Below, in pieces: positions 45,113 through 45,645 of a stretch of 47,785 bases of DNA. The position numbers and the translations under genes were made by a program. The notes beneath the pieces are model-generated. The model did no database searches. It saw nothing but the letters and a program-made list of their open reading frames with translations, and had not been told where the DNA came from. The stretch lies in the IMG/VR virus record IMGVR_UViG_2529292853_000006. One strand, given 5' to 3'. The stretch is from a virus (taxonomy: Duplodnaviria > Heunggongvirae > Uroviricota > Caudoviricetes). Every line of letters starts with the position of its first letter. The stretch's first letter is position 1.

Positions 45113-45133
45113 GGGAGAGCACGACACTCTCCC
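45113..45133 (-). terminator. intrinsic terminator-like hairpin
   Basis: GGGAGAG-7 nt-CUCUCCC followed by UUUCUUAUUGUGU on minus-strand RNA. Confidence 0.4.
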
Positions 45134-45143
45134 CATATATGAA

Positions 45144-45263
45144 TCAAACTAAAGCATTATCCCGGTTATGCGCCCACCAAATGATTTCGCTAATAATCCA
45201 TGCTTCTATCGCGGGTGTTTTTACAGGTTCCCCATTTACAATGCGGTTTGCAAGCTCTATCAT
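45144..45263 (-). CDS. candidate small ORF (39 aa)
   Basis: My own translation MIELANRIVNGEPVKTPAIEAWIISEIIWWAHNRDNALV; no clear SD; speculative. Confidence 0.2.
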   Translation of the reverse strand: MIELANRIVNGEPVKTPAIEAWIISEIIWWAHNRDNALV

Positions 45264-45307
45264 TTCACATACTGACATTTGAGAATCTCCAAAGATGCAT
45301 CTGTCAT

Positions 45308-45340
45308 TTGGTAACAGGCTGCCCCACAGCCTGTTACCAA
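45308..45340. repeat. perfect 14-bp-arm palindrome with 5-nt loop (TTGGTAACAGGCTG ccccA CAGCCTGTTACCAA)
   Basis: Seen directly; not followed by a U-tract on either strand. Confidence 0.6.
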
Positions 45341-45347
45341 CCCCAAA

Positions 45348-45645
45348 TTAGTATTTGCTGATTACTTTACCCTCCTTAAATCCGCTCCCGTTTTCAGAAC
45401 GAAGACACTCAATAAAATCTTTAAAACTCAAGCACTCATCGCCATCTTTTAACGAATCAAAATATTTTTCATATTCGCCCCTGTAAAAAAGGATTAAATC
45501 AATATCACTCTGATTAATTTCACCAAACTGAGGAATAATTCCGGTTTTATAGTCACGAATTTTATTGTTATCAGTAAAGATGACAACATACTCCGTCCCC
45601 TTATGTATAAGGGTAATAGTGCAAAGAGTTACTCGTTCGAATGTG
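45348..45645 (-). pseudogene. 5'-truncated gene of unknown function abutting the IS1 end
   Basis: The 103-aa ORF takes its first codons from inside the IS1 terminal repeat, so the native N-terminus is missing. Confidence 0.5.

Follow-up and report, generated by a model that had tools for sequence, protein, structure and literature searches.

Positions 45,113 to 45,645 of the stretch of DNA analysed here (47,785 nt in full, hereafter the window) lie between a hicAB pair and a copy of IS1, and hold a 103-amino-acid (aa) open reading frame (ORF) that begins inside the IS1 end, a perfect palindrome and a second, very small ORF. The question raised by this locus is whether these features belong together and, if so, what the palindrome serves for. 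In a preliminary description made from the letters alone, they were taken as the possible remnant of a small operon destroyed by IS1, perhaps with a toxin-antitoxin or defence gene, and the palindrome was regarded as more operator-like than terminator-like. Our analysis suggests that the interval is probably the distal end of one small leading-region operon, and that the palindrome probably acts as a hairpin in the sense transcript, serving the small cistron. The order on the minus strand is a truncated gene of a 99–109-aa family, the stem-loop, a 44-aa gene led by GGAG and an intrinsic terminator. The elements concerned are the following.

45646–45659, minus strand: IS1-derived start (TTG GCA GCA TTA CC) of the artificial 103-aa ORF, as placed by the ORF list and the IS1 boundary.
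45348–45659, minus strand: the 103-aa ORF, with its TTG start at 45659–45657, 14 nt within the IS1 end.
45348–45645, minus strand: 5'-truncated gene (a pseudogene, as judged by alignment with intact homologues and homologue searches) of a 99–109-aa plasmid protein family of unknown function.
45348–45397, minus strand: chimeric 3' end of that gene, encoding a 16-aa tail (SENGSGFKEGKVISKY), with a recombination junction at about 45380–45397.
45308–45340, minus strand: stem-loop TTGGTAACAGGCTG-ccccA-CAGCCTGTTACCAA, with 14-bp perfect arms and a 5-nt loop.
45287–45290, minus strand: Shine-Dalgarno motif GGAG of the small ORF, read from the sequence and the same in IncI2 and IncX4 copies.
45144–45278, minus strand: 44-aa gene (MSVCEMIELANRIVNGEPVKTPAIEAWIISEIIWWAHNRDNALV), defined by substitution rates, plasmid distribution, profile search and an AlphaFold2 model.
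45102–45134, minus strand: intrinsic terminator, GGGGAGAGTGTCGTGCTCTCCC plus TTTCTTATT, with its hairpin at 45134–45112 followed by TTCTTATT (z = −4.2).

The small ORF had been described as possible and 39 aa long. The frame 45144–45278 proved real, but its start lies five codons earlier, giving a protein of 44 aa; the spacer between GGAG and ATG is 8 nt, and all homologues start at that first ATG. When copies from IncI2 and IncX4 plasmids are compared, 10 of the 15 changed codons are synonymous, and the ratio of nonsynonymous to synonymous substitution rates (dN/dS) ranged from 0.03 to 0.17 in 13 of 14 pairwise comparisons, with synonymous divergence of up to 0.65; the remaining pair, with a dN/dS of 0.45, differs at three sites only. 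Judged by these substitution patterns, the small ORF is a genuine gene under strong purifying selection. The terminator-like hairpin noticed earlier behind it is also present (45134–45112, then the T-rich tract), and a hairpin of this kind with a T-run follows the stop codon of the small ORF in most versions.

A divergent form of the small protein (MSTRQIVQLADSLVKGWETRIPAM...WW...) takes its place in other plasmids of the IncI2 and IncX4 groups, and the two forms were detected by tblastn in 330 and 1149 plasmid records, most of the matches among those listed having no annotated feature beneath them. Cross-genus loci, retrieved with a four-sequence alignment as the query, extend the family over Escherichia, Salmonella, Klebsiella, Enterobacter, Erwinia, Pantoea, Serratia, Rosenbergiella and Photorhabdus, with members of 43 to 45 aa. 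In the closest RefSeq records examined the small ORF is unannotated, including beside the protein WP_000729511.1. The relatives returned by the profile search are all named 'hypothetical' and none of them carries a Pfam domain. AlphaFold2, supplied with a 33-sequence alignment, predicted a two-helix hairpin with a predicted local distance difference test score (pLDDT) of 88, and comparison of the small protein with Foldseek-PDB and with PDB sequences gave nothing below E = 1. Likewise, a full-text literature search returned nothing on the stem-loop or the micro-gene. A tiny ORF further upstream that spans the hairpin was considered and set aside, as it is present in two of the loci (L008 and L017) and is not conserved.

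The palindrome itself was confirmed as first described, with perfect 14-bp arms and without a U-tract; in the window it lies 7 nt past the upstream stop codon and 29 nt ahead of the ATG of the small ORF. Its pattern occurred in none of 100 shuffled windows, and it is one of three close inverted repeats in the 47.8 kb (arms of at least 14 nt, at least 94% complementarity). The other two are 21982–22014, whose 14-bp perfect arms include a run of seven A/T and have the look of a bidirectional terminator, and 24289–24325, with 17-nt arms. Folded as RNA, the stem-loop reaches −26.8 kcal/mol (z = −5.6). There is no T-tract beside it on either strand, and an Rfam scan at the module in the intact relative returned nothing. 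A −1 frameshift site, made of a homopolymer run and the hairpin, was also considered and discarded, since the stop codon comes before the hairpin in the window. A strong GGAGG (often AAGGAGGT; 45369–45375 in the window) recurs 20–45 nt before the hairpin in about 14 of 22 versions, with the reading-frame context varying among them; it may belong to a 3' tail that the upstream genes have in common, or be a ribosome-binding signal.

What carries the argument is the behaviour of this hairpin among relatives. A GC-rich hairpin precedes the ATG of the small ORF in all 26 distinct versions from Enterobacterales plasmids (the stem of one of them, L009, being read by hand), with stems of 8–14 bp, loops of 5–7 nt and a gap to the ATG of 28–36 nt. 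On the other side its position is loose: the gene upstream of the hairpin differs among plasmids, and the distance to the upstream stop codon goes from overlap with the stem (L008), through 7 nt in the window, to about 80 nt in other plasmids. In a 16-sequence alignment, 94% of the cells pair and 9 of 13 pairs have changed on both sides; the covariation values observed were reached by none of 500 shuffles, and no slid register came near them. A stable local fold is thus kept by compensatory changes throughout the 26 versions, as would be found for a stem-loop of messenger RNA. The clearest case is that of two loci whose small proteins are about 80% identical and whose stems are unrelated, GTGCCAGGGGGTG in L009 vs GTGTTACATGGTG in L148, which indicates that the constraint falls on pairing and not on the sequence of the half-sites.

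A covariance model, run over 223 kb of sequence that took in loci outside the set used to build it, located a single site in each locus, in every case at the small ORF, and simple pattern counts agree with this. Membership of a known repeat family is accordingly not what was found; as far as these scans go, the palindrome is no dispersed repeat but a conserved element, present once and linked with the small ORF. A pattern scan of metagenomes (TCAGGYTG-N6-CARCCTGA) gave 119 sites, almost all of them unrelated palindromes, and the small ORF was present only at the two sites with GTGATCAGGTTG arms, a type of scan that could not show whether the hairpin occurs without the small ORF.

The strand on which the hairpin would act is suggested by its wobble pairs. 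G.U pairs that can form only in the sense strand are internal in two stems (L018 and L152) and appear as the next outer pair in at least five independent stems and in L158, whereas an antisense-type wobble appeared in L026 only, giving totals of about 8 sense-type positions vs 1, in lineages that are partly related. Both this bias towards the sense strand and the constant distance from the ATG speak for a transcript hairpin serving the small cistron. The loop adds an observation at another level. Between plasmids with identical arms it is found in both orientations, as CTGGAA in L007 (2736–2755) and as TTCCAG in L119, which indicates that the DNA itself extrudes hairpins; hence these inverted loops, as read from the sequences compared, show extrusion and inversion at the DNA level. 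Further loop variants are TTCCAC and TACCAC.

We therefore prefer, with moderate confidence, to regard the stem-loop as a conserved 5' element of the small cistron, present as a hairpin in the sense-strand transcript. It would most probably mark a boundary for processing or stability of the messenger, so that the small gene could be expressed independently of the variable gene upstream of it. Stem-loops that protect or process polycistronic messengers are well known, as the repetitive extragenic palindromic (REP) hairpins of malE-malF, the papBA intercistronic region and the 5' stem-loop of ompA. The element described here resembles them in being a stable hairpin without a U-tract, located between cistrons or at a 5' edge, whose structure is kept and not its sequence; it differs in being a single copy tied to one small gene, in the conservation of its flanks and apex, and in being known here from sequence alone. 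We infer both that the hairpin acts in RNA and what it does there, and anything said about the function of either protein is of the same kind.

Several points weigh against this interpretation. Processing or stabilisation is deduced from the arrangement, and a perfect DNA palindrome gives the same 'covariation' whether the selected form is RNA, single-stranded DNA (ssDNA) or a symmetric protein site. The strand argument consists of about 8 wobble positions vs 1, some of them of common ancestry. The minimum free energy of the full 301-nt region is ordinary (z = −1.3), and only the local hairpins stand out. Moreover, the apex (..TG-loop-CA..), the 3' flank (WTSRACAAA) and a G-rich 5' flank are conserved beyond purely structural need, which hints at a specific partner. 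The two loop orientations may be counted on the same side, as they show hairpin dynamics at the DNA level, yet they are neutral with regard to RNA.

One alternative, in our opinion unlikely, is that the hairpin is an ssDNA signal, formed in the transferred strand on entry into the recipient and used near the origin of transfer (oriT) as a site for priming, pausing or recognition. The module is found in leading regions, often less than 1 kb from oriT-side genes, the inverted loops show that the DNA can extrude the hairpin, and leading regions use ssDNA hairpins as promoters (PMC12672017, PMC13478746). The establishment operons of the leading regions of F and ColIb-P9/pESBL, which are read from Frpo/ssi ssDNA promoters (PMC11541004, PMC12672017), do resemble the arrangement seen here: short, mostly uncharacterised genes in one orientation, towards oriT, with long GC-rich structured intergenic elements upstream of gene groups. 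However, the known ssDNA promoters are long (more than 100 nt), imperfect and fold below about −75 kcal/mol with rebuilt −35 and −10 boxes (PMC12672017), whereas the palindrome measures 33 nt and −27 kcal/mol, far too small for a Frpo/ssi promoter; in the window, moreover, the whole upstream element of such operons is gone. The wobbles fit the sense strand and not the template, which is the transferred strand as deduced from gene orientation, the strictly kept distance to the ATG (28–36 nt) speaks for a part in expressing the small cistron, and the module of IncI2 plasmids is some 4.5 kb away from their likely oriT.

The operator suggested in the preliminary description would be a stretch of duplex bound by a dimeric regulator, a role that the small protein might have, and would control the small ORF or neighbouring genes. 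In its favour, the two 14-bp arms repeat perfectly around a 5-bp spacer, a U-tract is missing, the palindrome always accompanies the small ORF, and its apex TG/CA and a flanking TGACA-like hexamer are conserved. Nevertheless, the compensatory change of the stem, the presence of one site per small-ORF locus and the absence of an overlapping promoter all argue against an operator. Half-sites differ even where the small proteins share about 80% of their residues, and arms and loop vary in length (8–14 bp and 5–7 nt). A promoter scan was empty at 45300–45350 on the coding strand; a sigma-70 promoter with the conserved TGACA as its −35 box was considered and rejected, having no conserved −10 box and an ATG only some 25 nt off. 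The sole constant neighbour of the palindrome is the 44-aa protein, a predicted two-helix hairpin with no helix-turn-helix or ribbon-helix-helix signature and no match in Pfam, PDB sequences or Foldseek-PDB, and no recognisable DNA-binding protein was found alongside. With no promoter at the site, a stem that changes freely by compensation and no such partner, the palindrome is probably not an operator, and we regard this role as improbable.

We assign a similarly low probability to a leaky, non-canonical terminator or attenuator, by which most transcripts would end after the upstream gene and expression of the small ORF would be kept low. In the window the upstream stop codon is indeed immediately followed by a stable GC-rich stem, and the same plasmid group offers a precedent in the internal non-canonical terminator of the IncI2 hicA(T)B system, likewise a GC-rich hairpin inside an operon, which with its short U-run sets the expression ratio of two small genes (PMC11878559). 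That terminator, however, is located between hicA and hicB and includes a UUU tract, whereas the hairpin described here has no U-run, its 3' flank being A/C-rich (AAAUGACA, consensus WTSRACAAA); the hicAB pair of the window, for its part, belongs to the overlapping subfamily without that internal terminator. With no T-run on either strand the palindrome does not qualify as an intrinsic terminator, in contrast to the hairpin at 45134–45112, which does. Besides, what stays constant is its distance to the ATG downstream and not that to the upstream stop codon, which may be up to 80 nt off or overlap the stem.

More speculatively, the hairpin and the 43–45-aa protein might form a functional pair in which the hairpin, be it RNA or incoming ssDNA, is recognised by the peptide; they would then constitute a so far undescribed switch for establishment or early expression at the oriT-facing end of the leading regions of many Enterobacterales conjugative plasmids, an idea that we hold to be doubtful. 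Finally, that these features came together by chance and the small ORF is no gene, as its missing annotation in the closest RefSeq records examined and under most plasmid matches listed and the want of any family assignment might suggest, is extremely improbable, being already contradicted by the purifying selection seen in dN/dS, stem covariation and the covariance-model scan, besides the cross-genus conservation and shuffling controls.

The upstream end of the operon is where IS1 comes into play. The 103-aa ORF does start inside the IS1 repeat, as stated in the preliminary description, with a TTG at 45659–45657; its first four and two-thirds codons are IS1, and native sequence begins at 45645. 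An intact homologue with an extended N-terminus, for which related genomes were searched, was found in plasmid pZH177-3. It encodes 109 aa (locus L001, 4449–4778), begins with MKFTSTTNHVFTFERV and has AGGAG seven bases before its ATG. The match of the window stops at 45645, equivalent to L001 4746, and the coding sequence (CDS) of L001 continues to 4778, so that 32 nt of coding sequence (10 codons and 2 nt), the ribosome-binding site and the 570-bp upstream region have been removed. The claim that the true 5' end was lost through IS1 is thus borne out by the intact homologue, with the qualification that the coding loss is that short and that most of the gene is retained. Among the missing codons 1–10 are those for S5 and T6, invariant in the family alignment, and the nearly invariant T7, and the invariant F11 reads as P at the junction codon. 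Since start codons, ribosome-binding site and upstream control region are gone, the IS1-fused gene is, from its sequence, to be considered a pseudogene, and the TTG within IS1 an accidental start. RefSeq lists the fused ORF as an ordinary CDS, WP_000729511.1 (NZ_CP024244.1, 139483–139794). The earlier idea of a small operon destroyed by IS1 stands as regards the remnant of one operon, and needs correction as regards the extent of the loss, most of the truncated gene being still present; the IS1-associated rearrangement cut off the first 10 codons, the ribosome-binding site and the entire upstream control region.

The other end of the truncated gene has a history of its own. Typical family members have 99 aa and end in ...FIECLR, while the 16-aa tail of the window variant ends in EGKVISKY, shared with an unrelated 92-aa gene family (ends EGKVISKY or KGKVTSKY). 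Blocks of DNA homology break at 45379 and 45398, which indicates that the 3' end of the truncated gene is itself a recombination product. The shared tail end shows, from these alignments, that modules have been exchanged just upstream of the stem-loop.

No assignment to a TA or defence gene came from Pfam, NCBIfam, PADLOC or PHROGs for either protein, and this part of the preliminary description finds no support. The truncated protein and the small ORF gave no Pfam or NCBIfam match above the curated cut-offs and no PADLOC match; the only PHROG match is that of the C-terminal helical part of the truncated protein to phrog_2061, of unknown function. Its family is confined to Enterobacterales plasmids, with every relative named 'hypothetical', and an exhaustive profile search for the 109-aa family gave 30 matches, none of them informative. 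A match to a 3284-aa protein with Listeria-Bacteroides repeats was discarded, as it looks like a match of beta-strand composition, and so was an EF-hand in the truncated protein, given a Pfam score under the cut-off and loop residues that are not those of an EF-hand. The AlphaFold2 model of the 109-aa protein, with a pLDDT of 45, was too poor to use.

The origin of the interval can be traced with the help of the features around it, which are given next.

44252–45645, minus strand: backbone island, leading-region DNA of an IncI2/IncX4-type plasmid, between an IS91-family element and IS1, with a 1394-nt match to pZH177-3.
45646–46413, plus strand: IS1 copy of 768 bp, with InsA and split InsB domains and terminal inverted repeats.
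44635–44883, minus strand: hicA, neighbouring gene (context).
44291–44638, minus strand: hicB, overlapping hicA by 4 nt (context).
44947–44919, minus strand: hicAB promoter, a perfect 12/12 sigma-70 consensus (TTGACA-17-TATAAT).
44962–45041 (to about 45110), no strand given: shortened copy of a GC-rich intergenic repeat of about 350 bp in full, about 78% identical to 2–3 further places per related plasmid locus.

The 1.39 kb at 44252–45645 are 97.4% identical over 1394 nt to pZH177-3 (L001 3353–4746), and the homology to this 62-kb plasmid has sharp limits, the IS91-family element to its left and IS1 to its right, with which it ends exactly. More than 1000 plasmid records contain related sequence, almost all of conjugative IncI2 (about 60 kb) or IncX4 (about 33 kb) plasmids, and 645 of the 647 places matched in Escherichia coli genomes are on plasmids, the basis for calling the island plasmid DNA. 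The window as a whole is 100% identical to large plasmids of enterotoxigenic E. coli (ETEC), NZ_CP024244 and three others, with etpB close by in the NZ_CP024244 record. By these matches, the island is foreign to the ETEC virulence plasmid that carries it, a stranded scrap of a conjugative plasmid of the IncI2/IncX4 type. Its left border is an IS91-family transposase ORF (42970–44064, with Y2_Tnp and Zn_Tnp_IS91 domains), the RefSeq counterpart of which is flagged as frameshifted.

As regards the right border, the element has the length (768 bp), the terminal inverted repeats and the insA and insB genes of IS1. Its insB has an internal TAG at 46186–46188, remarked in RefSeq as 'programmed frameshift; internal stop', and this copy is probably immobile. 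The 9-bp target-site duplication was not found at its ends, where the flanks read tcgaatgtg vs caggattgc, which points to a junction made by deletion or by IS1–IS1 recombination and not by simple insertion. The locus thus resembles known cases of truncation or adjacent deletion mediated by IS1, in that a fragment of a gene directly adjoins the IS1 end and that the inverted repeat gives an ORF an artificial extension; it differs from a simple insertion in lacking the 9-bp duplication, and the IS1 copy itself has a nonsense codon.

In the relatives, the position of the module is telling. In IncX4 plasmids it adjoins ddp1/taxC, the small ORF being the last gene before the oriT-side genes and pointing at them, and in IncI2 plasmids it closes a one-directional array aimed at mobC and the relaxase gene, with hicAB next. 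In three other plasmid types the small ORF is followed by only one gene on the opposite strand and then by nikA-like and relaxase genes, and in other plasmids a ccdAB or relE-type pair comes after it. This gene order corresponds to a leading-region layout, with oriT and the direction of transfer inferred from the position of the relaxase gene; the copy in the window is detached from any oriT. The hicAB pair of the window fits the overlapping 'HicA(O)B' subfamily described in these plasmids (PMC11878559). IncX4 plasmids retain a hicB fragment immediately behind the terminator of the small ORF (L008 1579–1791, 88% identical to window 44276–44488), which, from the alignment, suggests that module and hicAB have long been linked.

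The shortened repeat copy sits between the operon terminator and the hicAB promoter. Several such GC-rich repeats of about 350 bp are present in each IncI2 or IncX4 plasmid, and full-length copies were counted in 3233 places of 1182 plasmid records, blastn having found no similarity to plasmids outside the IncI2/IncX4-like group. In the intact relative one of them (L001 4880–5320, with an ssDNA fold of z = −4.9) precedes the homologue of the truncated gene. The ssDNA promoters of F and IncI1 plasmids look like structured GC-rich intergenic elements (PMC12672017, PMC13478746), and the IncI2/IncX4 repeat is a candidate ssDNA promoter of these leading regions.

As for what these results mean, the truncated gene is an ordinary dead remnant that matters little for this window, and the 103-aa CDS of RefSeq is an annotation artefact that deserves a pseudogene flag. 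The hairpin and micro-gene module, in turn, is carried by well over a thousand resistance and virulence plasmids, including the mcr-1 plasmids of the IncI2 and IncX4 types. It is strongly selected and almost never annotated, in a region whose genes decide the establishment of the plasmid in a new host. As a by-product of the analysis of an IS1 junction, a conserved, unannotated hairpin and micro-gene module of conjugative plasmids has come to light, which offers a well-defined target for studies of establishment.

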